From: Vulcanimicrobiota bacterium | GTDB taxonomy: Bacteria; Vulcanimicrobiota; Vulcanimicrobiia; Vulcanimicrobiales; Vulcanimicrobiaceae | DNA length: 64,000 nucleotides | NCBI GenBank assembly: GCA_963815165.1 | Contig: CAWFFL010000002.1 | Span: 289,023 to 353,022 of the forward strand | Direction: 5' to 3' | Shown: piece by piece, positions 8,417 through 26,454 of the stretch | Layout: each line of letters opens with the position of its first letter | Numbering within the stretch: the stretch's first letter is position 1 | Translations under genes and position numbers: made by a program | Notes under the pieces: generated by a model | What the model was told of the DNA's origin: nothing | What the model saw: only the letters and a program-made list of their open reading frames with translations | Database searches by the model: none

Positions 8417-8821
8417 TTAGTGGCCGCTTGCGTCGGAGGCAAGCGTAGTCGTCGCCGTTAGCACTCCTACAAGCGGCCCCGCTACGATCGCCGCTCCGAG
8501 CGACACGGCGTCACCGACAATCTTTATGATCGAATTGATTTTAGTCGCGTCTGCTTTCATTCGGTTCGCGGCGGCGTTTGCAGCGCCGGTGGCTGCTTTG
8601 ATCTTATTAAGATTGTCAGCAGTTGCCGCAAGCGCATTCAGAGCCGTTTGTATGGCAACCCCGTCAGAATATGTGACGAGGTCCGTATTATATTCGTTTA
8701 GCTTATCCGCCTGAGCGTCAGAAAGATTCAGAGCCGGATTGCCGATAATGTTTGCGACAACGAGCGAAAGATTAGTGAAATCTCGCGCGATATCGAGGGC
8801 CGTTGCATTGCCATTTGTCAT
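8417..8821 (-). CDS. hypothetical Ala-rich helical protein with a C-terminal hydrophobic segment
   Basis: 134-aa ORF that starts 2 nt after the stop of the upstream lipoprotein gene. The C-terminus contains GDAVSLGAAIVAGPLVGVLTA. Confidence 0.45.
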   Translation of the reverse strand: MTNGNATALDIARDFTNLSLVVANIIGNPALNLSDAQADKLNEYNTDLVTYSDGVAIQTALNALAATADNLNKIKAATGAANAAANRMKADATKINSIIKIVGDAVSLGAAIVAGPLVGVLTATTTLASDASGH

Positions 8822-8823
8822 GT

Positions 8824-10026
8824 CTATTTAACCGCTTTCCCTAGATCGACAAGATTCGTAATAATGGGTTCGCCCGTAGTCTGGAGAATCTTGACGTAGT
8901 CGGCGAATGAAGCATTGCTTCGCGAGGCATTATAAAGCTGTTCGTGCGTTCTCAGGATCATTGCCATTGCAGTACCGTAGTCAGCACTGCCTCGCAATTT
9001 GTCGTTGATGGAGGCCAAAGCCGTTTCTACGGCGCTCCTCGTCTTTGCTAACCGACGATCTATTGCCATTTCAGCGTTTCGCTCTTCAATGGAAGATATT
9101 GCATTCTCCCGTGTGAGGGCGGCCAAGGCTTCCCGTCGATCTGCAGCCGACAGGCCTTTCTGCGAGGCGACCGTTGACATTGCCTTCGAGGACGCGGCGA
9201 CCCTCATGCTCCACTCTCGGGCGAGCTCGTTTCGCGCGTTGAATTCGTGCCGTGCGTAGGTGTTGTACTCGCTGACGGTCTTACTGAACTCGTTCTGCAA
9301 CATTAGCGTGTAAGCTGCATCAACGCATTCGAGACTTTCAATGGTACCGGGCATTTGCGGATTAACGCTATTGAGAAAATCATTGATGGCCTTGGCACTG
9401 GCCTTTTGCTGAAAGTACGAAAAAATGGCGGTTGCCAGGCCCGATAATGCCTGGGTCGCAGCCGAGGAGACACCGGCGCTATTCAGGCCCGCGACTAGAG
9501 GCGACGGGTTCACTGCAGGCGTGTCCGCGACGTCGGCGAGATTTCCGAGGGCTTGACCGTAACCCAGGATTACTTGATTAGCTTGGTCCCAAGAGTCGCT
9601 GACCTTTCTTGCATCTCCGCAATCAACCGCTTTTTGTGGGGCTGATACTTGCGAGTTAGTCGGAGAAGCGGACGCAGCTGGCGCTACGGGTTCGGTGGGC
9701 GGCGAGAAAGTATACCCCGATTGCGGAGTGGCATTCTGGAATGAAAAGACGCTGAGCGGCTGCGGAGAAGTTGTGATCAGTGTCATTGTCTCTTGTGCAG
9801 TCACATTCGTTTCGAGGATACCTTGCGCGACGCGCTGCGTGCGTTCGCACGACGCCGAAAAATCGGCAGCCAGTGTCGAAAATGACTGCGCGCTTTGAGA
9901 CATTGTGCTCGCAAACTTCGAGATTGCGGAGAAGTCGGTCGGTGCAGCGCAGCTGGCGATCACGCTTACGGCCGCTACTGACAGAAACGCCGAGACGAGG
10001 AAGCGAGAACGAAGGGAAGAGTTCAT
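8824..10026 (-). CDS. hypothetical lipoprotein
   Basis: Signal peptide plus lipobox (LSVAAVSVIASC). AAGGAGG Shine-Dalgarno 9 nt upstream of ATG 10026. Confidence 0.55.
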   Translation of the reverse strand: MNSSLRSRFLVSAFLSVAAVSVIASCAAPTDFSAISKFASTMSQSAQSFSTLAADFSASCERTQRVAQGILETNVTAQETMTLITTSPQPLSVFSFQNATPQSGYTFSPPTEPVAPAASASPTNSQVSAPQKAVDCGDARKVSDSWDQANQVILGYGQALGNLADVADTPAVNPSPLVAGLNSAGVSSAATQALSGLATAIFSYFQQKASAKAINDFLNSVNPQMPGTIESLECVDAAYTLMLQNEFSKTVSEYNTYARHEFNARNELAREWSMRVAASSKAMSTVASQKGLSAADRREALAALTRENAISSIEERNAEMAIDRRLAKTRSAVETALASINDKLRGSADYGTAMAMILRTHEQLYNASRSNASFADYVKILQTTGEPIITNLVDLGKAVK

Positions 10027-10277: not shown

Positions 10278-10544
10278 TTATAATTGGAGGCATCCGCTGC
10301 CGTCGATGAGCTCATGGATCTTTCCATTGATCATCGAGCACGTCAGGAAGAATGGCGAGTCGGTACAAGTTATTTCGAGCGTTTTGCCGGCGGCGTCGTA
10401 GCTCCGCTGAATCGTAATGCCGTTTGACGATTGAGTTCCCGAGTCGGAGTTGATCGGAAGCCCCGCATCGTTAGCTTTCGTCTTTAGACAAGCAAAGGCT
10501 GCCGGGGATACGTTAGAGAACGTTTGCGTTGCACATGCACCCAC
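10278..10544 (-). CDS. small Cys-rich protein, last gene after the DUF4157 array
   Basis: 88 aa with 6 Cys. GTG start with GGGAGG 7 nt upstream. It begins 77 nt downstream of the last DUF4157 gene on the same strand. Confidence 0.45.
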   Translation of the reverse strand: MGACATQTFSNVSPAAFACLKTKANDAGLPINSDSGTQSSNGITIQRSYDAAGKTLEITCTDSPFFLTCSMINGKIHELIDGSGCLQL

Positions 10545-10621
10545 GTTACGACCTCCCGTCGATGTGGAGATGGTTATGAGCTCGTTCTGCCCTTCGAGTC
10601 ATCGAAGAATGTGCTCGACAA

Positions 10622-11827
10622 TCAGTAGCTAAAAATGTACTGAGTCGACCAATACCACGCAATGGGCACGTCGTTTAGCGGCATTCCTTTCCCAAGCGGC
10701 TGATCTTTGATATCAATCACGGGTTTATCGGTCATAGGAACCCTAATCGCGCTTCCGACGTGGGCGACGTCCCATGCATAGAACTTAACCATTGCAGATC
10801 CGAGGCCCTTATCACAGCTTTGCGGTTTCGCCTGCCATGCGAGCCGGAAGCTGCCAAAGAGATAACCGCTTTGGTGCCCGAGCGCTCCCCAAGTCATCCA
10901 ATTCAAGGCGTCGTTGAAGAGCCACGCGGCGTTCTGGCCGAAGCTTAGCGAATTAAGATTGAAATCGTCGCGTGCCATAAGCGACGGCTTCTGAGCCTGT
11001 GAGTCTGGAGAATCTTGATTCTTGCAATACTGTTCGAGTGCACGGAGGATCTTTTCCCGAACTTGCGCCATATGCGGATGCCCTCGAAGCTCTTTCGTCC
11101 AAGCGTGGTCGGGACCGTAGACATGGGCTCGATCGCTCGTCCCAATGAGATCTCCTAGAGCGGTGCCGACGAGGAAGTCGCGCAGGACGTCTCGCGTTGC
11201 GTGATATGTAGTCTCTTGATCGTCGCCATCCTTTTTTGGTGCGGCGGTAGCAGCCTGTCGACGGATTACGCTTGGCGAGGCACCTTGCTGCAGAACGTGA
11301 ACCAACTCGTGCGCCAGTAATTCCCTACCGACTTCACTCGACGGAGCGTACGCACCCGCAGCGAAAACGACGTCGTTGCCGACCGTATAGGCGCCAGCGT
11401 TAATCGCTTTTGCGGAAGCAGCCGCCTCGGAATCCGCGTGCACGCGGATGTTGCTGAAGTCGTGGCCCAAGCGCGGCTCGAAAAACGCGCGTGCGTTGGC
11501 TGCGAGCGGCTCTCCCGGTGAACGAAGCGCCCTATGGACGGCAGGAGGTGCGCTGCCGGTATAGCCATCTCTTGAACCGATCGATTTGGTCTGGAGCGCA
11601 GCCTCTTCTTCGCAAGGCGCACATTTGCGTCGAATCTCCCTTGGCGCGCCGCCGATCGGAGGGGACGAACTCGGCATACGCACTATCTTAGCGGCCATTC
11701 GATCCGCCTCGAGTTCCGCCGGGTCGGAAATGGAACCAACGAGTAGCTTTCGCTGTATGGTCGGCGATAAACGCGCCGGATGTACCGAGGTCGGCGGCTC
11801 GGTCTTATCAACCTTCGAAGCAAACAT
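10622..11827 (-). CDS. DUF4157 (zincin-like) domain protein no. 4, unique C-terminal domain
   Basis: SDPAELEADRMA, FFEPRLGHDFSNIRVHADSEAAASAKAINAGAYTVGNDVVF and LLAHELVHVLQQ form the canonical DUF4157 signature. I prefer ATG 11827, 1 nt after the upstream stop, over the ORF-track start at 11881. Confidence 0.8.
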   Translation of the reverse strand: MFASKVDKTEPPTSVHPARLSPTIQRKLLVGSISDPAELEADRMAAKIVRMPSSSPPIGGAPREIRRKCAPCEEEAALQTKSIGSRDGYTGSAPPAVHRALRSPGEPLAANARAFFEPRLGHDFSNIRVHADSEAAASAKAINAGAYTVGNDVVFAAGAYAPSSEVGRELLAHELVHVLQQGASPSVIRRQAATAAPKKDGDDQETTYHATRDVLRDFLVGTALGDLIGTSDRAHVYGPDHAWTKELRGHPHMAQVREKILRALEQYCKNQDSPDSQAQKPSLMARDDFNLNSLSFGQNAAWLFNDALNWMTWGALGHQSGYLFGSFRLAWQAKPQSCDKGLGSAMVKFYAWDVAHVGSAIRVPMTDKPVIDIKDQPLGKGMPLNDVPIAWYWSTQYIFSY

Positions 11828-11828
11828 G

Positions 11829-13124
11829 TCAGGGCGGTGCAGCAGCCGCAGGCGGCGGCAAGTGCTCCGTGGGCGCGGCACCCTTCTGCATGTAGGCGAT
11901 GTACTCGGCTTGGGTCGCCTGATGCAGGTGGAAGACCAGCGCCTTACCGATCGCGACCCGATGCGCTAATGTCAAGAAGTCGAGCGTGCCGACGCCCAAC
12001 GCCTTCTTTGCCCACTCGAACGTGAGCGTGTCGAGGTACGTGTGCTCCCCCATCGTACGCCAGAAGCCCTTGAAGTTCAGGTCGTCGTTTATGTCTTTGA
12101 TCGCTTCGGCAGACATCGTTGCCTTGTGTTGCGCTAAGTAGCCCTCTACCGTGCCCTGCTCCATCTCCACCATGTCGAGGTCAAACTGCATCGCCTCGAT
12201 CTTGTCCTCGGTGCCGCCCTTGCGTGGGTCGGTGGGCTCTTTCTTCAAGTATTCCAACTTGTTGATAATCCGCATGTTTGCGGCAAACAAGATCTTGTTG
12301 ACATCGCTTAGGATGCGAATCGCTTCAGCGGAGTGCAGCGCCCAGCCGGCCGGAGCTTCTATCGCCCCGACGCCGTCCGCACTCGTCACTATTCCGGCCG
12401 CTCCAAAAAAGCGGACGTTTCCGATCGCGCCACCGGCTCTTTGTGTGAGCGCGTTTATTAGAAAATAATACTCACTGCGCTCAAAAATCGTCTTGTATTC
12501 GTCCGGATGATTAGCTTTAGTGTTATAGATCGCCGCGTCGTTGAACGTGTTCGGAATTTTAAAATACAGATCGCGCCGCCAGTTGGTAATGTCATCCTGG
12601 AGCCAGTCGCCGGGCGTGTGCGCCTTGTTGTACTCGCCCGGCGTGAGTGCCATGCGATCGATGCGTCCGGCGTGGCCGCGATTCTGCGCGACGTGCGCGA
12701 GCTCGTGCGCCATTACTTTGCGCATCGAAGCGTTTTGCGACGCCATGGTGCGGCGCCCCAAGAACACGTTCGTTCCCACGGTAACGGCGTGGGCATCCAA
12801 ACCGCGCGCGAGGTATGCTGCGTTTGCGTCGTCGAAGACGCGGACGCGGCCGAAATCAAAGTCTAAGCGGGATTCCAATTTCGCGCGCACGTCCGCGGTC
12901 AACGGCCGTCCGCCGGGTGTTCCCGCCGCCTTCCCTTCGAGTATTCGCTCGGATAGGTCGGGCGCAATCTTCTTCGCTATCGAGTCGGCAGCAGTCTCCC
13001 GCGACGAGTCGCTTCGCGCTTTTATAGCCGCCAAGTGGAGTGGCGAGGATCGAGGCAGACGCTCCCGCATCACCATCATTTCGTTAGCCGATCGCTGATT
13101 TGACCCTGCTGCACGCGCTCGCAA
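11829..13124 (-). CDS. DUF4157 domain protein no. 3, unique C-terminal domain
   Basis: LESRLDFDFGRVRVFDDANAAYLARGLDAHAVTVGTNVFL and VMAHELAHVAQN. The start is uncertain: TTG 13124 or the ATGs around 13075. Confidence 0.75.
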   Translation of the reverse strand: MRARAAGSNQRSANEMMVMRERLPRSSPLHLAAIKARSDSSRETAADSIAKKIAPDLSERILEGKAAGTPGGRPLTADVRAKLESRLDFDFGRVRVFDDANAAYLARGLDAHAVTVGTNVFLGRRTMASQNASMRKVMAHELAHVAQNRGHAGRIDRMALTPGEYNKAHTPGDWLQDDITNWRRDLYFKIPNTFNDAAIYNTKANHPDEYKTIFERSEYYFLINALTQRAGGAIGNVRFFGAAGIVTSADGVGAIEAPAGWALHSAEAIRILSDVNKILFAANMRIINKLEYLKKEPTDPRKGGTEDKIEAMQFDLDMVEMEQGTVEGYLAQHKATMSAEAIKDINDDLNFKGFWRTMGEHTYLDTLTFEWAKKALGVGTLDFLTLAHRVAIGKALVFHLHQATQAEYIAYMQKGAAPTEHLPPPAAAAPP

Positions 13125-13138
13125 ATGTCTTCATTTGA

Positions 13139-14560
13139 CTAAGGCATTTTTGCGAATGCGAGGCGCACGACCGTCCGCTGACCGATGCTCGTCATGTCGG
13201 TGAGATCTACCCCGTGGCGGACCGCCTCGGCTTGCGCGTGCGTTGTGACGCTGGCGCAGATTCTCCCGATGGCGGCAACGTCGTCGTCCGAAATCCATCC
13301 ACCCATTAGTGTTTTAATCGCCTGCAGTTTACTTGCCACAGAAAGCTTTCCGATATCGCTTAGAGAGTGCCCGTTTACCCAATCTCGAACTTGATCGTCA
13401 TCATTGACCCAGTATGGGCTCGGCTCATTTTCGGCCGCAACGTCCCTCACGTTCTTACTTTCCAGCGGCGCACCGGATTCGGCCATGATGTTCCCAGAGT
13501 AACCAGGGTCGACGGTGGTGCTGCGAGTGCCGCCGAACGTGCCTTTGATCTTGCTCATGATGCCTTCCGAGTAGCGGTCTTGCAGACCAATAATATGGCC
13601 GAACTCGTGCGCAGGCGTCCATGTGAAAGCGTCGGCTTCGCTGGCATTGAGCGTCATCGATCTTCCGCCGAGGCCCGGAGAGACGTGCGACGGACCGGCG
13701 ATTTTCTTAGCCTCGATCTGAGTTGCGTTTCCCGCTGGGGAACCGCTGCCACGATAGGTCACCGTTATGCTGCAGCTGACCGCATAGCCGTCGGGAAAAG
13801 TTCGCGTCCAGGTCGAGTTGATCGAGTTCTGTATTGAAGCCGCTCGGTCCGCATTGGCTTCCTCGCCGGAGAGCTCCATCGCGCCGGTGATGCTGACCGA
13901 TTTCTCGGTACGATCCACGTAAAGACCTGGAGATGGAGAAAACTTCGCTACGGGCAATCCGTCTCGCTGGATTACGCCTCTGGTGACTCCTCGCGCCTGC
14001 TGAACTACATGAGTCAACTCGTGTCCCAGCAGGCGTTGGCCTTCAGGCGTACCAGGCTGATACCGGCCGGCACCAAAGATGAGATCCGACCCGATCGTAT
14101 ATGCTTTTGCGTGCACTGAAGCCGCACTGGCCGCGGCCTCGGAATCCGCATGTACTCGTACGCGGCTAAAATCATGGCCTAAGCGCGACTCAAAGAAATC
14201 ACGTACGACTGGATCGAGCTGACCATCAACTGGGCCCGCGGCGGAAGACGTGGCGAGTCTCCTAGTCGTCATTTGATCCGCTACGCGATCGGCTTCACGC
14301 TCCAGTGGATCGTCGACTCGGCCAATCGGTGGATTGGCCTGCGCGCGCCGCGACGGCCTAGCGGGCGGTTCGCAGGGCGAGGCGTAAGGATGCGCTTTTT
14401 GAACGCTTAGACCGTAAGAGCCCACTTCGCGTCCCTTCCCATTTGAAACGTTGATGAGCGCAAGCTTACTAGATTTTCGTGCCCAACTGGCGTCGCCTTT
14501 GTGACAATTATCGTCACTTTGGGATTTCGATCTTGAAACGCTCGATGTATGTCTCAACAT
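13139..14560 (-). CDS. DUF4157 domain protein no. 2 with a second, snapalysin-like zincin motif
   Basis: DDPLEREADRVADQM, FFESRLGHDFSRVRVHADSEAAASAASVHAKAYTIGSDLIF and LLGHELTHVVQQ mark the DUF4157 domain. A downstream HEFGHIIGLQDRY gives HExxHxxGxxD. An alternative start is GTG 14425, which has a GGAAGGGA Shine-Dalgarno. Confidence 0.8.
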   Translation of the reverse strand: MLRHTSSVSRSKSQSDDNCHKGDASWARKSSKLALINVSNGKGREVGSYGLSVQKAHPYASPCEPPARPSRRAQANPPIGRVDDPLEREADRVADQMTTRRLATSSAAGPVDGQLDPVVRDFFESRLGHDFSRVRVHADSEAAASAASVHAKAYTIGSDLIFGAGRYQPGTPEGQRLLGHELTHVVQQARGVTRGVIQRDGLPVAKFSPSPGLYVDRTEKSVSITGAMELSGEEANADRAASIQNSINSTWTRTFPDGYAVSCSITVTYRGSGSPAGNATQIEAKKIAGPSHVSPGLGGRSMTLNASEADAFTWTPAHEFGHIIGLQDRYSEGIMSKIKGTFGGTRSTTVDPGYSGNIMAESGAPLESKNVRDVAAENEPSPYWVNDDDQVRDWVNGHSLSDIGKLSVASKLQAIKTLMGGWISDDDVAAIGRICASVTTHAQAEAVRHGVDLTDMTSIGQRTVVRLAFAKMP

Positions 14561-16460
14561 ACTTTCGAGCTTCCTCTCGATCCGCCGGCTCAGCGGGTTC
14601 GTGTCGAGTGCGCTGCATTATTTTTCTGATGGATTCCTCGTTTTGAGCACGATTTTGACGCGCTGCCATTCGTAGGTCGACCAACGGCTGACTCTCCCTA
14701 AATGAGACAAAACCTTTAAACTTCTGGCCGAGTATCCGCCGGAGACTTGTCAGAGTTGCCTGGTCTACGCCATCGGCAGCCAGTTCGCTCAAGCTGTCTT
14801 CCGTCACTTGGTAGACCCACGGATAATCGATTGCTGCACGAGCGAGGCGAACCTTGACGTCCTCCTCGAGCAGGTCAAAACCCAGTGGATGCGCACTGAA
14901 TCTATCTTCCCCCGGGGTCGCACCTTTAACGCTCTTAACGCCGTGCTCGTAAGTCCATGGCGCCTTCGCGTACGGGCTCGTATTTGCCCAAACGACTTTG
15001 GTGCCGACGGGAGCATTATGCCACGCTAGGTCGTCACTCGTTTCGATCCGGTCCCGCTCGAGCCCAGTTGTACCCTCAGCCCGCAACACAAGGCCTGCGA
15101 ATTTCTCGTTAAATGCTTGGGGGTTATCCTCCAGCGCAAGTCGCCAAGCACCCAAGAGCGCTATTTCCGGAAAAAGACGACAATCGCACGTCCATTTGTC
15201 AAGGTTGGCAAACAACAGGGCCACTGCATCAAACGGCGTGGCGGCTGTTGGCGAAAAAGCACCGATTCCGCGAAGCTTTTCCAGGTTCGTTTGGTTCGAT
15301 TTCCAGTTTGCCTCGTCAATCTTCATCTCGCCTGGTTGTGGAAACGAGCAGCCACCAGCGATTAGCAGCGGCTTGAGACGATCCAGCGTCGCCCTAAGCG
15401 CACGTTCCCACTTCAGCCTGAAGGCTTCGTCATTTAGGTGGCTTGCGACTTGAGGTGTGTTCACCGGCCGCATGATTCCCTTGCGAAGCGCATCCATGCC
15501 GCCCGTAAAGCGTCGTGCTGCAAATGCGTCGAATCTGACTAGTGCGGCCTTCCCAAAGGAATTGTAGAGTGCTTTTGGGTCAATTCCGCCAGAACCGAAG
15601 ATCGTTTGAAGATCGCTATTTTCGCAGCGTTCGAGTAAGTCTAGAATGTTTGTCTCGTCTCCCTCCGTAACAGTACCCGTCATCATCTCGCGTATAAGGA
15701 GGCTTTTCAGGCGAGCATCAAGATGAAAGTTGCGATCGCCAGTTTTCCACCGCGCTATGATGGCGCGCGCTTTATTATCACTATCATAGTGATTTTCAAT
15801 CGTACCGGTTTTCTCGCGGCCGGCAAGGTAGTCGGTAAGCTCTTGATCGGAAAATTTCCCCTCCCCGAACAAGCGCGAGAACGTCTCTCCTGGTCCCTTC
15901 GTAAATACATCTCCGATAACGCGAAAGGCGTCGAGGGCATCACGCTGGATAGCCGGCTTTCCCAGTCGACGAAGCGGTTCGCGGGCGCGTCCCTGGCCAA
16001 TCGCATGCGCGGTCGTTCGGGCTTCCCGCTCACACTCGTTCCAGGATGGAGAGTCGTCCACGTAGACCTCGTTTGTCGAGGCCTGACTTTGTTGGACGAC
16101 GTGCGTAAGCTCGTGCGCGATTAGCTCGCGGTTTGGCTTAGATGTGGACAAGCAGTGGGCCGAGCCAAGCGCGATATGCGTGCCCAGCGTCCACGCGCGC
16201 GCTCCAATGGCCCTTGCCGATGCAGCCGCTGAATCGTCCGTATGTATCCGAACCCGATCGAAACGATGACCGAGATGCTCCTCCATTTCCGCGCGAAGCG
16301 CCGGCTCCAGCGGAAGCCCGGACGAGTCGATCACAGCCTGGATAAGGCCGCCGGTTGCTCCACTCGGTGAAATGCTCGAAGTAGCCGACCTGGCTTTCGG
16401 AGGCCCAGCGCGCGCAGAGCGCTGCGCCGTACGCCCCACTGGCGTATAGCGCAAAGCCAC
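14514..16460 (-). CDS. DUF4157 domain protein no. 1 with a ~480-aa C-terminal domain of unknown function
   Basis: MEEHLGHRFDRVRIHTDDSAAASARAIGARAWTLGTHIAL and LIAHELTHVVQQ. The GTG start lies 4 nt after the stop of the last eCIS structural gene. Confidence 0.8.
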   Translation of the reverse strand: MALRYTPVGRTAQRSARAGPPKARSATSSISPSGATGGLIQAVIDSSGLPLEPALRAEMEEHLGHRFDRVRIHTDDSAAASARAIGARAWTLGTHIALGSAHCLSTSKPNRELIAHELTHVVQQSQASTNEVYVDDSPSWNECEREARTTAHAIGQGRAREPLRRLGKPAIQRDALDAFRVIGDVFTKGPGETFSRLFGEGKFSDQELTDYLAGREKTGTIENHYDSDNKARAIIARWKTGDRNFHLDARLKSLLIREMMTGTVTEGDETNILDLLERCENSDLQTIFGSGGIDPKALYNSFGKAALVRFDAFAARRFTGGMDALRKGIMRPVNTPQVASHLNDEAFRLKWERALRATLDRLKPLLIAGGCSFPQPGEMKIDEANWKSNQTNLEKLRGIGAFSPTAATPFDAVALLFANLDKWTCDCRLFPEIALLGAWRLALEDNPQAFNEKFAGLVLRAEGTTGLERDRIETSDDLAWHNAPVGTKVVWANTSPYAKAPWTYEHGVKSVKGATPGEDRFSAHPLGFDLLEEDVKVRLARAAIDYPWVYQVTEDSLSELAADGVDQATLTSLRRILGQKFKGFVSFRESQPLVDLRMAARQNRAQNEESIRKIMQRTRHEPAEPADREEARKYVETYIERFKIEIPK

Positions 16461-16464
16461 ACTC

Positions 16465-18883
16465 TTACCGTCGTTTCCGCCTGCGGTGGGGCGGCTGTTT
16501 AGGTTTCGTCTCCGGCTGCGAAGTTGACGACGACGAGGTTTCCGGTCGCGCTTGTTGCGGCGCTGCCTCCGGCGGTTGTGGTGGTGCTTCCCTGGGTGGT
16601 TGCGACGGTGCTGCCTCAGGAGCTTGCGGCGTTTCCACGGCTTGGTGAGTGAGAAGGGTGGGGTTCACCTGCTGCGTGATGATATGCGTGTTGTCTATGC
16701 CAGTGGGCGGAACGAAGACTCTAAAGGGATTTATCGTGAAAGATGCGGCAGCGCTGGAACCGCCGTACAAAGCAGTGACTTGAACGGTGATCGCGGTCAC
16801 AAGCGTGCCGCTTGTCGGAATCGCGAACTGCGCCGCAAGAGCGCCCGCGGGAACGGTGACCGATGGCGGCACGTGCGCGACATTGGCCGCAGTCGTTGCT
16901 GACGCTAGCGCCACGACTGCGCCTCCCGGGGGTGCGGGCACGTTAAGCGTGGCGGTCGCATTCACCGTTCCTCCAACCGTGACCGATGCCGGCGCGATGC
17001 TCAGACTCTGTATGGTCGGAGGAAATTGGCGGTGGAATCAACCAGAACCACATCTCGAAGTCGTCGGCACGCTCATTGTTTCCGCTCGGAAGCACGACGT
17101 CGGTGCTTGCGGATCCGGGCGTTCCGTACGATGCTCCGTCGAGGCGCACCGTTGGATTGCCGGCAGCCCAGATGTATCGACCGCGAAGTCGCATGCGCGC
17201 CAGCACCGGTGGCAGCGTTTGACCTGCCGCAAGGGACTTTGCGATCAATGCGAAGAGCGGCCCCGGGGCGGGCGATTCCGTCAGTTCCCATACTTGCGTT
17301 GGCTGCCAAGCTATGACGTTGCTGGAAACGCTGACTTGAGCGTTGAGGCTCACCGGCTGCGTTCCGAAAAACGGCGCCTGACCGCTAGGAGCCGCCGGCC
17401 ACACGTCGGTGCCAAGCGGATACGGCAGCCACAGCACGACTTCGCACGTGGCGCTCGCGCCCCCCGTTGCGGAACTCAACGATAGCGGATCGAGCGGCTG
17501 ATCGCACGTGATGGCAATTCCGTTGGCGAGTTGACTGGGAAGAACGGCCGAATCGTTTGCGAGCTCGACCTGTCCGTCGACGAGCGTTACTGCCGTAATA
17601 TGAATCGCTTCTACCGCGGCTGCGCCTAGTTCCGAGAGCGTCGGAAAAGCAGGGCGACAGACGTCGACGAGCGTCCAGTTGGTGCCGTCAAAATTCAGAA
17701 CGGCGAGTTGGCAGAAGTCATGGCTAACGCCGGAAGGACCTTGAAAGCTCGGATTGTTGGAACCATCGAGTGGCCAAAGAACTCCGATTCCCGTGCGCGC
17801 CGGGATCTGCCAGAAGTCGCCATTGTGAAGCGTGCCTAGCGGCGCGGCAACTTCGATTTGTACGCCGTTTTCGAGATCGACCCAAGAGCCCGCCGTGATT
17901 GACACCGCACCGGGAGAGTCCCATCGCCGCACGATCGGATTGAGCGGAAAATTACTAAAAACGATCGTCGAGGTCGAGTTATCGACGGTGATCGTCGTGC
18001 CTGCGATGCTCGAAATCTGCGCGAGGATCCCCGGCACGCCATTGAGGATGTGGGAATCGTCGGTAACTTCGACCCAATCGCCTATGTTGAAGCCGAGCGC
18101 GCTGTCATTACCAAGCCCCTCAACCGTTAACTGGTTCCCGTTGAGCGCAAGCCAGCGCGTTGCAACCGATCCATTCTCGCGCGACCAGACGATTGAAGGT
18201 ACGGTAGCGTCGTGCACCTCGACACGGTACAAGTGATTCTCGAGACTGGTATAGCCGGCGGTCGGTGCTATGACGCACGGGCTGCCGCTCGCGGGTGCCG
18301 GCTCCGCCTGCGCGGCGAGCTGAGCAGAGCTGGAAGCGATGAACTGCGTCCATGTCGGATCGCTTGCATCGCAGCCAAACGTCGAAGAGACCGGGAGCAG
18401 CTTCACCTGCCAAATCGTTCGCGTTCGAGCGCAGGTGTCGGGGCCTCCCAGTGCGGGTTCGAGGAGAGAGTTGTCCTCCACCGCCGTGACGCTTCGCTCC
18501 CATGCGTCGAGGTATGCGAGATATCTGCCGGAAGGCGTCGCCGTGCCGTTTGTCCCTAAATTCGAAATCGCATAGCCCGGCAGTTCGGCTTGTGCCGTAA
18601 TCTGCAGCCCATCAACGTCGTTCTCGCAAATCACGCCGTTGACGTACATCCGGCCCGCCGAGATTACCGGCACGTTGTTGTTGATCGTAATCCCGAATCC
18701 AGCGTTATCTTTCGGCGCGCCGCTGGCACCGACGACATCAATAGTCTCCGTAGCGACTCGTCGCCGAGCGATGTCGACTTGCTCGTTCCAATCAGCGTCG
18801 AGCGCGACTCGCCCCTGCTGGCTGCGAACGCTGCTAAACCGCTTGGCTGGATCGAACGTCGAACGAGAAATGTCGGCTGCCAT
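16465..18883 (-). CDS. DUF6519-like eCIS distal protein with a C-terminal Ig-like domain and a Pro-rich basic tail (frame broken once)
   Basis: The N-terminus FDPAKRFSSVRSQQGRVALDADWNEQ matches the motif I associate with DUF6519. ORFs 16943..18883 and 16465..16965 join if one A of the AAA run at 17023..17025 is removed, giving ..FWLIPPPIPPTIQSLSIAPASVTVGGTVNATATL.. Confidence 0.6.
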
Positions 18884-18893: not shown

Positions 18894-21095
18894 TTAGGTT
18901 ACGTAGAATGCGCCGGCCGATAGACCGAAGCGAAGATATTCGTCGATACCGATGCCCAAATTCGTAATGCGTTGCGGCTGTTTGAGGAACCAGAACGCTC
19001 CCATTTCGGCGCCGTCCTCTGCTCCGGTCCGCAACGATGCAGAGCTTCGCATCGAAAGCTGCGCGAACCCGGGTTGCCCGAACGCAACGCTGGTAAACTG
19101 AAGTACCGCCGTCGGATCGCTGTCGGTGACGCAGCGGTAACGTCGCGGCGTCGCGGACGCGTTCGGAAGATACGAGTAGCGAATACAACCGGTCTGCTTA
19201 CGCGCGGCAGAGACGACACCCGTGAAGATTGCATCCGATGCCTGGAGCGAACGTACCGTCGTCGTGCCGAATACCGTGATTCCGGAAGCGGTTACATCGG
19301 CGCTGGGTGCCGTGATTGCCGCAGCCGTTGCAAGCGCTGTGCCTCCACTCGAAACGATCGAATCCGTTGCATTGAGCGTTCGCGATAGATTGTCGGCGGG
19401 AAGAACGAGCGGACCGCAGACGATGCGCGTGAGCGTGATTGCGATTCCTTCATTTTCACGGCCGGCGTCGCCGCCGGAGGCGATGGTGAGGCCGCCGGAC
19501 GTCGGCGCGATCGTCGTATGCGAAAGATTCAGTGCTCCGAGCGCGCCTGCCGTCACAGTCAGCGATCCGTCCAGCCAGACGCCGTTCATTCCAAATCCGC
19601 CAGGCGGAAGGCCGGCGGCGCCCGGCGTTCCCACCACTTCAATTGTGCCGCGGATCGTCGGGCGAAGGCCGGCCGGCTCCAGCGCACGTGGGTTGGGTTG
19701 GGTTGCGCTGCTCGCATTGGGCCACGCCGCCGCGATAACGACGAGACCACAACCGGCTGGAATCTTTACCGCCGCGGTGCCGGTGATCTGCTCGACGTAC
19801 GTCGCACTGTCCACGATCGCAATGACGCCGAGCGCACTCGGTTTTCCGTTCCAATCCGCTACTGCCGCGGCCAGCGAGTTATAGACTCGTCCGGGAACAG
19901 CCGTTTCGGTGGCGCTGACGGCAACCTGCCAGGTGACCGCGGGATTTCCGGTCGACGGATCGACGAGCATCGATTCGACCGAATCGCTGCGGTCGTACGG
20001 GCCGCCGCCTAGGTCACCCGAGAATCCATACGCGTACGAAACCTCGACCGAACCTGTTGGTGCGCCGGCCGGAAAGACGAGCCGTCCCAGAACGGGATCG
20101 AGCGTTGCAGTGATGGGCAGCGAGACCGTCGATCCGTCGCTCGATTTCACGTACGTACGTGTCGTTGCAACGGAGCGCCACGTTCCGCTTCCGGCCGGAA
20201 CGTCACTGAGATCGCAGACGCTCAGCTCCAATGGCGATACCGGCTTTCCCGCCACTTGAACGCTCACGACCGGCTCGGTCTCGTTGAAATAATCGAATGC
20301 GGGCGGATTGCCGTCCACATTCGCCTGCCGTGCGGCTTCGAGCTCGAGGTAGAGCGGGAGCCGGCGCAGATAACCGGGTGCATCCGTTTCCAGGGTCCGA
20401 TGCATTTGCGAGTCGTGCGTACGCGCGATATTCGTCAGCGGCGCGTCGAAGCCGAACGGGTTGAACGTGAAGCGCCCGTCTGCCGCCGCGGCCGCGGCAT
20501 GTGGCGCGGCGTTCTCGACAGGATAACTCTGCAAGCGCCAGAGGAAAACGCCGACACCCGGAATATTATAGCGCCCTTGCGAAGCCGCGACCGAACGCAC
20601 GTCGACGGTGCGCGGAGCGTTTTCGAATGGTCCCTCGAGCAGCTGAAGCGACGCTGCGTCACGAACGTTTGCGGTTGCGAGAGTATCGGGCCGAAGATGA
20701 TTGAGGTACTGCGTTGCAGCGAGCAGTCGATAGAACTCGACCGCGCTGGCGGACCAACCGGTGACGTCGGCAGCCAACTGCTCGACCATCGCCGCCGTTC
20801 CCTTTTGCCGCCGATATGCGAGCGCGTGGGCGACGTAGGCGCGCGGCGAAAGCGTTGCGGGCGTCACCGGGCTGAGCGACCTGACGCCTAAGAGATCGGC
20901 GATATACGGAACTACCCAATCGGCACACGTCTCGATGAACCAGTTCTCGTACAATCCGTCCATATCGACGCTGATCGCATCGAGCTCCGATTCGATGACG
21001 GCAAGCAATGCGCGCAAGGGCTCGCCCAGCGCGAAATCGCGAGTGCGATAGATCGACGGCAAGAACTGATAGAGTTTTTCGGAGGCAAGACTCAT
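18894..21095 (-). CDS. gpI-like baseplate/tail-fibre protein with a probable beta-helical C-terminal half
   Basis: LYQFLPSIYRTRD..LLAVIESELDAISVDMDGLYENWFIETCADWVVPYIADLLGV resembles the P2 gpI-type N-domain. The C-terminal half is Gly/Thr/Ala-rich with short periodic strands. The start overlaps the upstream stop as ATGA (21092..21095). Confidence 0.6.
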   Translation of the reverse strand: MSLASEKLYQFLPSIYRTRDFALGEPLRALLAVIESELDAISVDMDGLYENWFIETCADWVVPYIADLLGVRSLSPVTPATLSPRAYVAHALAYRRQKGTAAMVEQLAADVTGWSASAVEFYRLLAATQYLNHLRPDTLATANVRDAASLQLLEGPFENAPRTVDVRSVAASQGRYNIPGVGVFLWRLQSYPVENAAPHAAAAAADGRFTFNPFGFDAPLTNIARTHDSQMHRTLETDAPGYLRRLPLYLELEAARQANVDGNPPAFDYFNETEPVVSVQVAGKPVSPLELSVCDLSDVPAGSGTWRSVATTRTYVKSSDGSTVSLPITATLDPVLGRLVFPAGAPTGSVEVSYAYGFSGDLGGGPYDRSDSVESMLVDPSTGNPAVTWQVAVSATETAVPGRVYNSLAAAVADWNGKPSALGVIAIVDSATYVEQITGTAAVKIPAGCGLVVIAAAWPNASSATQPNPRALEPAGLRPTIRGTIEVVGTPGAAGLPPGGFGMNGVWLDGSLTVTAGALGALNLSHTTIAPTSGGLTIASGGDAGRENEGIAITLTRIVCGPLVLPADNLSRTLNATDSIVSSGGTALATAAAITAPSADVTASGITVFGTTTVRSLQASDAIFTGVVSAARKQTGCIRYSYLPNASATPRRYRCVTDSDPTAVLQFTSVAFGQPGFAQLSMRSSASLRTGAEDGAEMGAFWFLKQPQRITNLGIGIDEYLRFGLSAGAFYVT

Positions 21096-24013: not shown

Positions 24014-26454
24014 TCGGCCGTCTCCATAATGAAGTCGATCACTCCGTTCTCGGGCGCGTTGGGATCGTTATCGAGGCGCGCGATCTCGAGCGGCGCCATC
24101 GTAATCTTTCCGGCTGCCGTCTCTCCGCGTGGTGCGCGCCCGTATCGCAGAAAATGATTTGCCGACGATGTAACGTCGTTCGTGTCGATCCAAAGGACAC
24201 CCGGAACCGCCATCGCCGTTGCGATGATTTGACTCAAGTAGACCGAATCACCGAATCCGAAGTTGTCGGGGTAGAAAAAACCGCGCTGGCCGTTGGGCAA
24301 AATGCGGTTGCTAAAGGTATCGAGCAGCGCCAGACGCACGGCGGATGGGTCGTAGCCCGGCTCGACGCAAATGCTAAAGACCATGTCGAGCGGCACGTAG
24401 GCCGGGGCCTCGATTTCGACGTCGTAACCGGCGAGCCGAAAGCCTTCGAGATATTCTCGGATCGCAGCTTTGAAGTTCACATCGACCGGAAGACCTGCCA
24501 TACGCTCCACGCTGACGAAGACCGTGTACCACGAGCCCGTCCACCGCACGGTTCCGCGCGCCTGAAGCACGCCGGGAAAGCCTTGTGCGACCGTGGCGTA
24601 ATCGGCCGGAGTGACCGCGCGCTGCTGCGTTCGGAAGGCTTGCGGAGCGTATGCGCGCACCTGATCGAGCGTTTCGGGATCCGTTCCTCCCGAAGCCGGA
24701 AGCGGATTGCGAATGTGTGCGACCCCTGCAACAGGAGCGATTGCGGCGACGATTGCTTCTGCACCGACGTTTCCCATCGAACCGTTGCCGACGCGATATC
24801 GCGCGACAAGGCCACTCGCGGGGGGAGCACCTAGAGTGCCGTCGCCAAAGCGCAGCGTTGCGGTTCCGTCGTCTTCGGTCTCGACGACGAAATCGCGCGC
24901 GTTGGGCCCGCTCTCGAGCAGCGTCGGCTGCGCGGACCATGCGCCGGTCGGCCCGGTCAATCGAACCTGCGGCAGCGCTGCTCGCGGATCCGCGAGCGCG
25001 GCCGAAGCGGCGGGTTGCGTCAGCGCGAGGCCTGCGTCATAGGGTACCGCAAACGTGATGCCCGTCTGCGCCAGTATGGGACGATACGGAGTTCCCAGCA
25101 TAACGGTCGCCGGCGATAACGGCTCAGCAAGTTGCGTGAGGCCCTGGTCGGCGAGCACGACGTTTCCGCGTGCAACGGTTACATTTGGAACGGGAGCGCC
25201 GCTCTGCGGATCGAGGATCGAAAGGCAGAGCGTAAAGGGCAGTGCATCGCCGGCGGCCCAGGCGATATTAACGACCGGAGTGCCATCGACCGGATCGGTT
25301 GTGGATGATATGGACGTTAAACGAACGGCGCAGCGATGCGACGGATCGGCGTCGGCCGCCACACCGGTCGCGGGACCGAGGACTTCTTCAAATATCAAGA
25401 CGTCGCCGGGAACGAGCTTGAGCGTATTGCCGGGATTCGCCAGCGTCGCGCTGGTGGAGCCCTGCGGCAGACAGCACGCCTCGTCACTCCAGGTGTAGAA
25501 CATCATCGTGTCGTGTGCGGCGTGTAACGTCACGTCGTCCATCGTCTCGAACGCGACGGGCGTGCTGCCGGGGGCCAAAAGCGCAAATCCGGGCGCACCG
25601 GGAATTGGACCCTTGAGCGTTACGCCCTCCGCGGCGCCGCTACCGTCAAGCGAAAAGCAAACCCACGCGCGCGCGTTGCAACCGTCGTGCATCGGATAGT
25701 CGAGCAGGCGGGCATGCCGCCGGACCGAGATGCGGCGTCGCGCCGTTCCGAGGTATGCCTCGGTGGCAACCGCGTCCTGATAGTAACTCAGCCGATCGGC
25801 GTAATAGGCAATCGTTTCGACGAGCGCGACTCCAACATCCGGAATATCGCTCGCCGGCCACTGCGGCATCGTCACGCTCATGCGATCGAGCATGAGTTGC
25901 CGAAAGCTTTCGTAATCTTTGGCCAGGTAATCGATCTGCGGCGATGGGCCTTGCGGTTGCGTCGGGGGCTGCGTCGTCGCACAATCGAAATCGCTTGGAC
26001 AATCGACCTTGAACGAAAATCTCACCGCGCTCGACATCGGGTCGAAGGCGAGCGGCGGCGCCGACGTCGGAGGCGGCGGCCCCGTCAAGGTCAGCGTGTA
26101 CGTGGAGAAATCGCCCGTGGCGCTGGTCCGAACGACGAGAACGTTCGGCGCGTCGGAGAGCGTCTTGACGTAGGTATCGAGCGCGGCTTCGACGCCGGCA
26201 GGTGCCGTTGCCGAAGCCTGGTAGGCCCAGACGACGTTGATTCCCGTAATCCGAACCCCGCCCGAGATCGTCGCATTGGCCACGCCGAGCCCCGACGCCG
26301 TTTGCAGCAAATGCACGAGCAGCGTTTGTTGCGGCGGCGTACCGGCGGGTGCGCCGCTGTCCAATACTTCCAGATAGTCGATCCCATTGAGATGCGTGTT
26401 TTCGAGCACCGCGTCGCGACGCTTGGGTATCGTACAAACGTATTGCGTCGTCAT
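24010..26454 (-). CDS. baseplate J / gp6-like wedge protein (Afp11-like)
   Basis: 814 aa. VTPADYATVAQGFPGVLQARGTVRWTGSWYTVFVSVE is a Baseplate_J-type motif. It sits immediately after the gp25 gene. Confidence 0.75.
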   Translation of the reverse strand: MTTQYVCTIPKRRDAVLENTHLNGIDYLEVLDSGAPAGTPPQQTLLVHLLQTASGLGVANATISGGVRITGINVVWAYQASATAPAGVEAALDTYVKTLSDAPNVLVVRTSATGDFSTYTLTLTGPPPPTSAPPLAFDPMSSAVRFSFKVDCPSDFDCATTQPPTQPQGPSPQIDYLAKDYESFRQLMLDRMSVTMPQWPASDIPDVGVALVETIAYYADRLSYYQDAVATEAYLGTARRRISVRRHARLLDYPMHDGCNARAWVCFSLDGSGAAEGVTLKGPIPGAPGFALLAPGSTPVAFETMDDVTLHAAHDTMMFYTWSDEACCLPQGSTSATLANPGNTLKLVPGDVLIFEEVLGPATGVAADADPSHRCAVRLTSISSTTDPVDGTPVVNIAWAAGDALPFTLCLSILDPQSGAPVPNVTVARGNVVLADQGLTQLAEPLSPATVMLGTPYRPILAQTGITFAVPYDAGLALTQPAASAALADPRAALPQVRLTGPTGAWSAQPTLLESGPNARDFVVETEDDGTATLRFGDGTLGAPPASGLVARYRVGNGSMGNVGAEAIVAAIAPVAGVAHIRNPLPASGGTDPETLDQVRAYAPQAFRTQQRAVTPADYATVAQGFPGVLQARGTVRWTGSWYTVFVSVERMAGLPVDVNFKAAIREYLEGFRLAGYDVEIEAPAYVPLDMVFSICVEPGYDPSAVRLALLDTFSNRILPNGQRGFFYPDNFGFGDSVYLSQIIATAMAVPGVLWIDTNDVTSSANHFLRYGRAPRGETAAGKITMAPLEIARLDNDPNAPENGVIDFIMETAE

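Follow-up and report, generated by a model that had tools for sequence, protein, structure and literature searches.

Four tandem DUF4157 proteins with different C-terminal domains, a probable cargo module beside an Afp/PVC-type eCIS operon in a Vulcanimicrobiota bacterium

Gene content of the locus

The window analyzed here, i.e., the whole stretch of 64,000 nt from contig CAWFFL010000002.1, harbors a complete Afp/PVC-type eCIS operon. Directly 3' of its tail-fibre gene lie four consecutive minus-strand ORFs (D1 to D4), which match PF13699 (DUF4157, now “eCIS_core”) in Pfam with E-values of 1e-22 to 1e-32. The genes of the region are as follows, with the components of the operon assigned by Pfam:

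36989..37933, plus strand: BTAD-domain regulator, divergently transcribed (PF03704, E 5e-13)
18894..36595, minus strand: eCIS structural operon with sheath (frameshifted), gp19 tube, Pvc16_N cap, WHD + AAA ATPase, CIS_tube, VgrG OB domain, gp25, two Baseplate_J and a P2_I-like gene
30043-31834, minus strand: the WHD + AAA ATPase, frameshifted in Walker A
16465..18883, minus strand: tail-fibre gene (DUF6519, the eBAP5 baseplate-attachment domain; PF20129, E 2e-53), split near 17025 by a +1 frameshift
14514..16460, minus strand: D1, 648 aa (PF13699, E 9.8e-27)
13139..14560, minus strand: D2, 473 aa (PF13699, E 7.7e-32)
11829..13124, minus strand: D3, 431 aa as longest ORF (PF13699, E 7.7e-22)
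10622..11881, minus strand: D4, 419 aa as longest ORF (PF13699, E 2.1e-30)
10278..10544, minus strand: S88, 88 aa, small and soluble, linked to the array by position only
8417..10026, minus strand: two genes downstream of S88, one for a predicted lipoprotein of 400 aa, the other for a C-terminally membrane-anchored protein of 134 aa (hydropathy)

A first-pass annotation had described four tandem DUF4157 ORFs attached to an eCIS operon. Both parts of this description hold, as a full eCIS operon precedes the array and D1 to D4 reach 93, 110, 78 and 105 bits, far above the PF13699 gathering cut-off of 22 bits. BTAD regulators have been reported adjoining eCIS operons (Geller 2021, PMC8213781), and the eBAP5 assignment of DUF6519 is taken from PMC12923769. 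The tight spacing of the array was likewise confirmed. The upstream stop is 4 nt away from the GTG start of D1, D1 and D2 overlap by 47 nt with D2 starting at ATG, D2 and D3 are separated by 14 nt (counted to the longest D3 ORF), and the D3 stop lies 1 nt from ATG 11827, the probable start of D4. The 4 nt had been given as the distance to the last structural gene. ORF 16465-16965, however, is no separate gene but the frameshifted C-terminal, receptor-binding end of the DUF6519 tail fibre. Compared to the 782-aa orthologue from a related locus (L001), the gene stays in frame -1 down to 17027 and continues in frame -2 from 17022, with an extra T in ATTTCC. Further frame changes were found in the ATPase, with an extra G within the GPPGTGKT Walker A near 30665, and in the sheath, between ~36281 and 35960 in comparison to single-ORF homologues.

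The HExxH motif is intact in all four array proteins, which also share the motif [FLM]-E-x-x-L-x-x-x-F-x-x-[VI]-R-[VI]-[HF]. The motif [DS]-P-x-E-x-E-A-D-R, which had been ascribed to all four as well, is confined to D2 (DPLEREADR) and D4 (DPAELEADR); in D3 there is just a loose ETAAD and in D1 nothing comparable. The DUF4157 cores are the only BLASTP matches between the members (31-45% protein identity). As had been claimed, each protein has a different C-terminus. These regions are mutually unrelated by BLASTP and by hhalign of the C-terminal profiles, in which the sole signal was a weak helical motif in D1 and D2. Their length is ~214-518 aa and not 250-480 aa, as the annotation had it. An array of four is also less unusual than was implied, since comparator loci carry arrays of 2-5 DUF4157 genes, one of them with five in a row.

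C-terminal domains of the array proteins

The domain organization of the four proteins, all encoded on the minus strand, is as follows:

D1, aa 1-49, nt 16314-16460: N-terminal region, basic and disorder-prone
D1, aa 50-127, nt 16080-16313: DUF4157/eCIS_core zincin domain (HELTH)
D1, ~aa 177-367: helical repeat domain
D1, ~aa 370-550, nt 14811-15353: Tgl-like transglutaminase-fold domain with invariant Cys425/Cys427 and Glu505-His506
D1, after the Tgl-like domain: helical/beta tail
D2, aa 1-114: N-terminal region with DPLEREADR
D2, aa 115-191, nt 13988-14218: DUF4157
D2, aa 202-376, nt 13433-13957: snapalysin-like metzincin module (H318-E319-x-x-H322-x-x-G325-x-x-D328, Met359)
D2, aa 385-473, nt 13142-13408: C-terminal helical module of ~90 aa
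D3, aa 74-151, nt 12672-12905: DUF4157
D3, aa 159-431, nt 11832-12650: all-alpha C-terminal domain
D4, N-terminal region: contains DPAELEADR
D4, aa 125-201, nt 11279-11509: DUF4157, followed by a linker
D4, aa 271-419, nt 10625-11071: conserved aromatic-rich module of ~149 aa

For D1, 16 homologues were found in 5.8e9 proteins, 13 of which contain PF13699. Its AF2 model (pLDDT 87, pTM 0.81) matched the Bacillus/Geobacillus spore-coat transglutaminase Tgl in a Foldseek search of the PDB (7c9j and 4p8i; probability 1.00, E 1e-4, TMt 0.67 and 0.58, over ~205-230 columns). D1 and Tgl can be aligned at the catalytic Cys and Glu and at an A-H-x-x-G motif, with hhalign placing D426-C427 onto Tgl E115-C116 and E505 onto E187. 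Identity to Tgl is only 17-19%, without a Pfam or HMMER sequence match, and no Pfam transglutaminase family gave a scoring match. In contrast to Tgl, the D1 domain is part of a larger DUF4157 protein of 648 aa and carries an invariant His right after the Glu (Glu505-His506, in YEHG). D1 may therefore rely on a Cys-His pair and function as protease or deamidase. According to the model, D1 is a predicted Tgl-like transglutaminase-fold Cys enzyme, which would work either as cross-linker/deamidase or as protease. A papain- or transglutaminase-like Cys...His arrangement had been suggested for it. The Tgl match bears out the Cys enzyme, but the His of LAWHNAPVG is no conserved residue, as the family has W-K for consensus at this site.

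D2 has 297 representative homologues. Within the family, the H, E, H and D of the zinc site are invariant and G, Y and M nearly so. The family profile matches snapalysin (1c7k/1kuh/4hx3) with an E-value of 7e-6; PF13699 occurs in 28 of 54 members and a Peptidase_M7 match in 5. In 75 of 91 HMM matches, the C-terminal module of ~90 aa forms the very end of the protein, and 7 of 10 sampled carriers contain PF13699. Judged by its sequence, the D2 head is a putative minimal snapalysin-like zinc endopeptidase, followed by this conserved helical trailer. Snapalysin (MEROPS M7), the small neutral protease of Streptomyces, shares with D2 the HExxHxxGxxD zinc site, in which Asp is the third ligand, as well as the downstream Met and a small catalytic module. 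It differs from D2 in being a secreted, Sec-dependent enzyme, whereas D2 is fused to DUF4157 and the helical module, and the lone D2 sequence reaches 15.9 bits against the Pfam M7 gathering score of 25.

D3 probably starts at ATG 13070, which gives 413 aa, the length of its orthologue in L001 (80% identical, alignment beginning at aa 19). Ten homologues were found. The AF2 model (pLDDT 85, pTM 0.84) has 14 helices, and the D3 head is thus a confidently modelled, predicted all-alpha fold. Foldseek returned no solved relative (best E 2.5 in PDB, 1.6 in BFVD), and the D3 profile had no match among PDB sequences. The D4 module is very rare, with only three matches among 5.8e9 proteins. The first is an identical protein encoded by a 488,778-bp NCBI/ENA contig, and the others are standalone modules, one of which lies downstream of a DUF6519 tail-fibre gene.

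Variation of the array between related loci

L001 keeps the operon, with 79% and 65% identity for the last two structural genes. In place of D1 and D2 it has a single, unrelated DUF4157 protein of 991 aa, and D4 is missing. D1, D2 and D4 having no counterpart in L001, the array grows and changes by whole-gene gain and loss. GC3 is 0.73 in D3, 0.58-0.61 in D1, D2 and D4, and 0.67-0.76 in the structural genes. Because it is conserved in L001 and has operon-like codon usage, D3 appears to be the resident array member. Among related loci the same head types recur in different combinations, and for every head type most homologues are either DUF4157 fusions or encoded within eCIS loci.

The small ORF S88 had been described as a 6-Cys ORF with a strong Shine-Dalgarno sequence. 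It is a real ORF with conserved orthologues and GGGAGG 8 nt before its GTG, but contains five Cys, four of them invariant; its N-terminus MGACATQTFS is strictly conserved. No match was found in the family search, and hydropathy revealed no hydrophobic segment. An orthologue with 75% identity lies directly after the D3 orthologue in L001. Of the three detectable homologues, two (L015, L016) lie among esterase, LuxR/GAF and BlaI/BlaR1 genes, with neither DUF4157 nor eCIS genes within 6 kb.

Interpretation as cargo and comparison with known systems

The region is probably the cargo (effector) module of the Afp/PVC-type eCIS, consisting of four DUF4157 proteins with different effector heads. This reading, put forward in the first-pass annotation, builds on domain content, fold matches, conservation of catalytic motifs and comparative gene content. 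It fits the published definition of eCIS-associated toxins (EATs) and the Cgo-type cargo of AlgoCIS, and related loci vary the head combinations. DUF4157 proteins make up 51% of predicted eCIS toxins (Danov 2024, PMC11297309). Since the layout of DUF4157 with variable heads is well documented (Geller 2021; Danov 2024; Xu 2022), the locus adds members and not a new kind of system.

The N-terminal regions of D1 to D4 contain 64-70% disorder-promoting residues and 0-2.6% aromatics at a net charge of +5 to +9, compared to 47-53%, 6-11% and 0 to -8 in the C-terminal regions. Such a composition was described as signature of eCIS signal/loading sequences (Danov 2024), and a Sec signal or TM segment was found in none of the four. 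The basic, aromatic-poor and disorder-prone N-terminal stretch would serve as loading signal and might be recognized by the AAA+ ATPase of the operon, by analogy with AlgoCIS Cgo1/Cgo2. The cargo would then be threaded into the inner-tube lumen, and contraction of the sheath would expel it into the target cell. Loading, delivery and toxicity of D1 to D4 are what we infer from this. Sequence similarity between the N-termini is restricted to D2 and D4, so there is no common system-specific signal.

In AlgoCIS of Algoriphagus machipongonensis, DUF4157 proteins were experimentally shown to be tube-lumen cargo (Xu 2022, PMC8894135). Loading there does not require DUF4157 (PROCIS preprint 10.64898/2026.05.27.728243), and its presence is therefore no proof of a loading role. 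Like the array, Cgo1 and Cgo2 are more than one cargo encoded with the eCIS cluster, and both consist of a disordered N-terminal region, DUF4157 and a differing C-terminal domain, which in Cgo1 is a predicted metalloprotease as in D2 (PMC8894135; 10.64898/2026.05.27.728243). The array differs in having four members instead of two and in its Tgl-like, snapalysin-like and two orphan heads, the likeness to Cgo1/Cgo2 being one of architecture. The N-termini of Cgo1 and Cgo2 resemble each other, whereas in the array only those of D2 and D4 do.

EATs also share with the array the N-terminal DUF4157, mostly unannotated C-terminal domains, a nearby BTAD regulator and the lack of obvious immunity genes (Geller 2021, PMC8213781; Danov 2024, PMC11297309). 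No immunity gene is interleaved with D1 to D4, which would be odd for antibacterial toxins, but many validated EATs likewise have no obvious one (Geller 2021). The validated toxin EAT14 (DUF4157 + LysM + transglutaminase-like; Danov 2024) is a precedent for D1 as a DUF4157-fused transglutaminase-fold Cys enzyme. Its domain is of the Transglut_prok/microbial TGase type (PDB 5m6q), while that of D1 matches the spore-coat Tgl type, and D1 has no LysM but a long helical domain before the catalytic domain. In Halogeometricum borinquense one CIS exports five DUF4157 proteins, which are CIS-dependent secreted toxins and in part encoded in or next to the cluster (PMC11566945). Toxic members have a neutralizing partner gene directly downstream there; in the array none is interleaved, and S88, the sole small ORF downstream, fails the co-occurrence test.

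Alternative explanations

Unless they stem from errors of the assembly, the frameshifts in the sheath, in Walker A of the loading ATPase and in the tail fibre may disable the machine. The island could be decaying or silent, with the DUF4157 genes as relics or serving another CIS elsewhere in the genome. Three essential genes are affected, and the GC3 of D1, D2 and D4 is below that of the operon. We consider this unlikely, as the two shifts resolved to the nucleotide, in ATPase and tail fibre, each consist of one base inserted into a short homopolymer, as is typical of long-read consensus errors, and another public assembly from this population (L002, 98.7% identity) is full of indels. Compared to homologues, the four cargo ORFs are complete over their whole length, and the other operon ORFs are uninterrupted with their family matches kept. 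It is very unlikely that the DUF4157 proteins are accessory particle parts, i.e., adaptors, chaperones or processing proteases which tether or mature other effectors, instead of injected toxins. A small Streptomyces DUF4157 protein does bind the spike complex and tether a DUF4157-less effector, DUF4157 was proposed to act as chaperone, either in cis or in trans (Danov 2024, PMC11297309), and the HExxH of every array protein is intact. However, that adaptor was described as a small DUF4157-domain protein, whereas each array protein has a large distinct C-terminal domain, two of them with enzyme-type catalytic motifs, and no DUF4157-less effector candidate except the 88-aa ORF adjoins.

Regarding the origin of the array, the cores had been thought similar enough at nucleotide level to allow recombinational shuffling. 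A polymorphic-toxin magazine diversifying by homologous recombination in the DUF4157-coding segments, like Rhs/CDI orphan-tip arrays, would agree with the conserved N-terminal domain and variable heads, with head combinations that differ between genomes and with N-terminal and core regions that are GC-richer than the C-terminal region in D1 and D4. The cores, however, share no more than 31-45% protein identity. At the DNA level, the best stretches reach 74% over 78 nt and 89% over 27 nt, with longest exact runs of 9-14 nt, and thus do not go beyond what the protein motifs dictate. RecA-type recombination is commonly considered to require ~20-30 bp, and with 14 nt as the longest exact match shuffling is not supported. 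As truncated orphan heads are also absent and L001 differs by whole genes, this origin is extremely unlikely. Whether the end of the array is a toxin-immunity pair, with S88 as cognate immunity protein or inhibitor of D4 or of D3, appears doubtful. S88, a soluble and cytoplasmic protein, is encoded on the same strand immediately downstream with a strong Shine-Dalgarno sequence. It is also conserved beside the L001 orthologue of D3, and downstream immunity partners are documented for Halogeometricum DUF4157 toxins (PMC11566945). But L001 carries S88 without D4, no S88 homologue is found near the D3 homologues of L003-L006, and the homologues away from eCIS loci leave the proposed immunity role unsupported. 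S88 and the two downstream membrane-protein genes are syntenic in both genomes, so S88 may be part of the flank instead of the array. This downstream pair, for which the family search found no match, has the same order in L001, with 26% and 35% identity.

Gene array downstream of the eCIS operon

For an array of four DUF4157 genes (D1 to D4), we determined domains, folds and motifs as well as the turnover of genes. Each of the four consists of an N-terminal region, a DUF4157 core and its own C-terminal head. The array is part of a single long gene string on the minus strand (10.2-36.6 kb) and begins on the same strand 4 nt past the tail-fibre ORF of an operon for an extracellular contractile injection system (eCIS).

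Features of the eCIS operon and the DUF4157 array in the window
36989-37933, divergent from the eCIS operon: BTAD regulator (Pfam match)
36595 down to 16465, minus strand: complete Afp/PVC-type eCIS operon (Pfam), with sheath, gp19-type tube, Pvc16_N cap, winged-helix and AAA ATPase, CIS_tube, VgrG OB-fold spike, gp25, two Baseplate_J proteins, a P2_I-like protein and a DUF6519 protein
14514-16460, minus strand: D1, PF13699 (DUF4157, now eCIS_core)
13139-14560, minus strand: D2, PF13699
13142-13408, minus strand: C-terminal helical module of D2 of about 90 aa (aa 385-473), unannotated and separable
11829-13124, minus strand: D3, PF13699
10622-11881, minus strand: D4, PF13699
10278-10544, minus strand: S88, small ORF of 88 aa

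The four ORFs match PF13699 with 78-110 bits (gathering score 22) and E values of 1e-22 to 1e-32. The central observation of the first-pass annotation, four DUF4157 ORFs following the eCIS operon, thus holds and goes well beyond what chance would produce. PF13699 was not matched by any further ORF of the window. The HExxH zincin motif is kept in D1 to D4 (HELTH, HELTH, HELAH and HELVH), and the DUF4157 part of the D1-family profile shows a weak match to the M48 protease BepA around this motif (E 0.009). Some details of the annotation had to be revised. The DPxExEADR motif, attributed to all four proteins, occurs only in D2 and D4, while D3 contains a loose ETAAD and D1 has none; the D1 family overall has a short N-terminus without it. 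ORF 16465-16965, regarded as the last structural gene, is actually the C-terminal end of the tail-fibre gene. DUF6519, encoded by this gene, is known from eCIS tail fibres as the baseplate-attachment domain eBAP5 (PMC12923769).

The likely true start codons of D3 and D4 are ATG 13070 and ATG 11827, the former because the orthologue of D3 aligns from residue 19 (length 413 aa). A public record identical to D4 (P0027, 358 aa, on a 488,778-bp NCBI/ENA contig) has its start placed at Met62. With this start, DPAELEADR is lost along with the larger part of the putative loading region; the start of D4 was probably mis-called there. A promoter and terminator scan within the array gave results at chance level, and neither Rfam families nor tRNAs were detected in the window.

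Relation to known eCIS cargo

[quoted passage not shown] In AlgoCIS, two DUF4157 proteins fill the tube lumen and exit upon contraction (PMC8894135); their loading requires the disordered N-terminal region, with DUF4157 being dispensable (preprint 10.64898/2026.05.27.728243). For a haloarchaeal CIS, export of five DUF4157 proteins was reported (PMC11566945). By definition, eCIS-associated toxins and Cgo-type cargo are encoded in an eCIS operon or at its 3' end, at most 10 genes from a core gene, and the array lies in such a position.

The N-terminal regions of D1 to D4 contain, by a composition proxy only, 64-70% disorder-promoting residues and 0-2.6% aromatics at a net charge of +5 to +9. The heads differ in composition from these disorder-rich, basic and aromatic-poor regions. 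Similarity between N-terminal regions was found for D2 and D4 only (z 6.8), with the remaining pairs at shuffle level, and a loading motif common to all four was rejected.

D1 to D4 fit the published frame of AlgoCIS-type DUF4157 cargo. From this frame and the N-terminal composition we interpret the array as a set of four cargoes, loaded either together or as alternatives, and we infer their loading, delivery and toxicity. The AAA+ ATPase of the operon would thread the proteins into the tube, and they would be delivered to the target when the sheath contracts, where D1 and D2 might act enzymatically on target-cell proteins. The first-pass annotation was right in its main interpretation of the array as an eCIS cargo module, yet the arrangement is a textbook case which has already been described.

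eCIS particles are being engineered for programmable protein delivery, and new toxins can be found among their natural cargo. The locus offers four intact and compact DUF4157 cargo candidates in one operon. It leaves the current picture of eCIS biology unchanged; what makes it valuable are its particular heads and a small unannotated C-terminal module.

D1 carries a Tgl-like head

Sixteen homologues of the C-terminal 518 aa of D1 were found among 5.8 billion clustered proteins, 13 of them fused to DUF4157. An AF2 model built on the homologue alignment (pLDDT 87, pTM 0.81) was compared with the PDB using Foldseek. The only significant matches were 7c9j and 4p8i (probability 1.00; E 1e-4 and 2e-4; target TM 0.67 and 0.58), the spore-coat transglutaminases Tgl of Geobacillus and Bacillus, whereas the next match had an E value above 1. 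According to this model, the head of D1 is Tgl-like and adopts the NlpC/P60-like Tgl fold.

By hhalign, Asp426-Cys427 of D1 align to Glu115-Cys116 of Tgl, and Glu505 to Glu187. The Tgl sequence used for this comparison agrees with all five residue numbers in the published Tgl study. Cys425, Cys427, Glu505 and His506 are invariant across the 16 members of the D1 family. In Tgl, Cys116 together with Glu187 (or Glu115) are the catalytic residues (PMC6490927). The invariant His following Glu505 makes Cys-His chemistry, as in a protease or a deamidase, as plausible for D1 as cross-linking. The suggestion of a papain- or transglutaminase-like arrangement in D1 thus held for the DKWTCDC motif, which contains the aligned, invariant Cys427, and failed for the proposed His, which is not conserved.

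The Pfam transglutaminase families gave no match to the D1 head even at E ≤ 10, and Tgl was not recovered from the PDB by phmmer with D1 or by hmmsearch with the D1-family profile. Therefore, D1 was classed as Tgl-like in fold and not as a family member. A validated precedent for a DUF4157 protein with a transglutaminase-like domain is EAT14 (PMC11297309). Its domain is of a different type, so that the Tgl-type head of D1 is unlike that of the one validated transglutaminase-like EAT. Among the D1 homologues in the search results, the one with a species name, from Streptomyces roseifaciens (L018, JBHTSM010000070.1, 9001-10989), is an orphan, with no eCIS gene within 9 kb on either side.

D2 combines a snapalysin-like region with a recurring C-terminal module

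The family to which the C-terminal 273 aa of D2 belong is larger, as 297 representatives were found at E ≤ 1e-3. In an alignment of 54 sequences, the family shows the HExxHxxGxx[HD] zinc-binding consensus in the form HEFGHxxGxxD, with H318, E319, H322 and D328 invariant and G325 nearly so. A Tyr and Met359, located in GNIMA 31 residues past D328, are also nearly invariant; Met359 is a candidate for the Met-turn that metzincins have downstream of the zinc site. Snapalysin (chains 1c7k, 1kuh and 4hx3) is matched by the family profile at E 7e-6, Peptidase_M7 is matched by 5 of the 54 members at E ≤ 1e-3, and 28 of the 54 contain PF13699. Since D2 by itself reaches 15.9 bits against Pfam M7 and stays below the gathering score of 25, its middle module is best called snapalysin-like, which makes D2 a candidate for a minimal snapalysin-like protease. 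When the isolated heads were searched against Pfam at E ≤ 10, nothing was found beyond weak M7/M10 matches for D2.

The helical module at the C-terminus of D2 has the consensus W...L...K..I.TLM.GWIS..D..A. A search with an HMM of the module detected it in 88 fetched proteins, and 75 of the 91 matches are located at the extreme C-terminus. Among ten carriers sampled, seven were DUF4157 proteins without a further Pfam domain, and the module recurs at the C-terminal end of many DUF4157 proteins with differing middle regions. It could help to explain what eCIS cargo share besides the N-terminal signal. Up to three copies per protein occur (P0095). A helical region of D1 resembles the module weakly (hhalign E 0.004). 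As the D1 family is missed by the module's HMMER profile, the resemblance was kept as a lead only.

Heads of D3 and D4

For the C-terminal 273 aa of D3, ten homologues were identified. The AF2 model of the head is all-alpha (pLDDT 85, pTM 0.84) and found no structural match in the PDB (best E 2.5) or BFVD (best E 1.6); the sequence profile had no PDB match either. A pore-forming or membrane toxin is unsupported, as D3 has no 19-aa window with a hydropathy ≥ 1.6. The head of D4 has three matches in the whole database, which are D4 itself and two standalone modules of about 150 aa. One standalone module is located downstream of a DUF6519 tail-fibre gene. The standalone D4-type module P0028 (JGI 3300047160) has at its end ...DDPLELEADRV..., a motif that DUF4157 proteins typically carry at the N-terminus. 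This looks like read-through into a DUF4157 gene or a former fusion upstream of one.

A phmmer search of full-length D1 to D4 against the PDB gave nothing meaningful, and neither the heads nor S88 nor the two genes downstream had a useful match in NCBIfam, PHROGs or PADLOC. The heads of D3 and D4 are without detected structural or functional relatives. They might be injected toxins with folds and mechanisms absent from solved structures, with the D2 module acting as a second cargo-specific domain for particle association, release or refolding in the target and not for toxicity. We regard this combined proposal as rather doubtful.

Turnover of the putative cargo genes around D3

In BLASTP comparisons among D1 to D4, similarity is confined to the DUF4157 cores (31-45% identity). 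A locus on a metagenome contig of a related organism (L001), whose final two structural genes share 79% and 65% identity with those of the window, was used as the main comparator. Its tail-fibre gene is followed by an unrelated DUF4157 protein of 991 aa, an orthologue of D3 (80%) and, directly after it, an orthologue of S88 (75%). Distant versions of the window's two downstream membrane-protein genes are found further on. D1, D2 and D4 have no counterpart in L001, and DNA homology in this stretch is limited to D3, S88 and one flanking gene. The GC content at third codon positions (GC3) is 0.73 for D3 and 0.67-0.76 for the structural genes (16943-36595), compared to 0.58-0.61 for D1, D2, D4 and S88. 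The heads of D1 and D4 lie 7-11 GC points below the N-terminal region and core of these proteins. As D3 is kept in L001 and has an operon-like GC3, it looks like the resident cargo, and D1, D2 and D4 like later additions. The comparison of the two loci represents a small natural experiment, in which whole cargo genes come and go around a resident member.

Similar runs were observed elsewhere. In L003 and L004 a D3-type protein stands behind a different DUF4157 protein. A D2 orthologue lies within a run of three in L007, and a metagenomic eCIS operon (L017, 7383-16872) carries five successive DUF4157 genes between the ATPase and tube-initiator genes, the second of which is a D1 homologue. An array of four members is thus nothing unusual. 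Interleaved in the run of L017 are three small ORFs (88, 159 and 145 aa), which may be immunity genes.

It had been suggested that the conserved cores allow recombinational shuffling. The best DNA matches between D1 to D4 extend over 78 nt (74% identity) and 27 nt (89%), with maximal exact runs of 9-14 nt; a longest exact match of 14 nt speaks against this idea. A recombining array of the Rhs/CDI type was rejected, as near-identical DNA is absent from the conserved segments.

Role of S88 and integrity of the operon

S88 is a real, conserved and soluble protein with a good ribosome-binding site. It contains five Cys, four of them invariant, instead of the six originally counted. The family is tiny, with only three homologues detected, a strictly conserved N-terminus (MGACATQTFS) and the four invariant Cys. 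Its members are located at 10278-10544 in the window, at 11291-11560 in L001, at 6001-6264 in L015 and at 2080-2334 in L016. S88 had been proposed as a possible inhibitor or immunity factor closing the array. Such a role should tie it to D4 or D3; however, S88 stands directly after the D3 orthologue in L001, where D4 is absent, and it occurs without D4 and without D3 in L015 and L016. Conversely, no S88 homologue was found beside the D3 homologues in L003-L006. The neighbours in L015 and L016 are esterase, LuxR/GAF and BlaI/BlaR1 genes, and DUF4157 or eCIS genes are missing within 6 kb. This lack of co-occurrence argues against a specific immunity role, and we consider it improbable that S88 is an immunity protein.

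Another question is whether the machine is functional. Compared to single-ORF homologues, three structural genes are frameshifted: sheath, ATPase and tail fibre. For the tail fibre, the alignment with the 782-aa orthologue of L001 keeps one frame down to 17027 and continues in a different frame from 17022, because of an extra T in ATTTCC. In the ATPase, an extra G in GGGG at about 30665 breaks the Walker A motif GPPGTGKT, and the frame of the sheath gene shifts between 35960 and 36281. These frameshifts may really inactivate the machine, in which case the locus would be decaying. However, the ATPase and tail-fibre shifts, which were resolved to the nucleotide, are single-base insertions in short homopolymers, and indels are abundant in another publicly available assembly of this population (L002, 98.7% identity). 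Assembly error caused by long-read homopolymer errors is thus the simpler reading.

The C-terminal receptor-binding part of the tail fibre (16465-17022, compared to 5850-6384 in L001) shares about 38% identity, in contrast to 65% for the N-terminal eBAP5 part. This divergence fits a diversification of target specificity between close relatives. In the window, the tail fibre ends in a strongly basic, Pro/Ala/Gln-rich tail.

Downstream of S88 (8417-10026), a predicted lipoprotein of 400 aa with a lipobox-like IASC and a helical protein of 134 aa with a C-terminal membrane anchor are encoded. They have no family match, and their gene order is kept in L001 though identity is just 26-35%. Elsewhere in the window, glycosyltransferases are encoded at 38852-40771 and 50874-51887, and a protein of 1504 aa without Pfam match at 46353-50867. 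The region 55917-59950 encodes a patatin-like phospholipase beside two large proteins without family match and a LuxR/GerE-type regulator.
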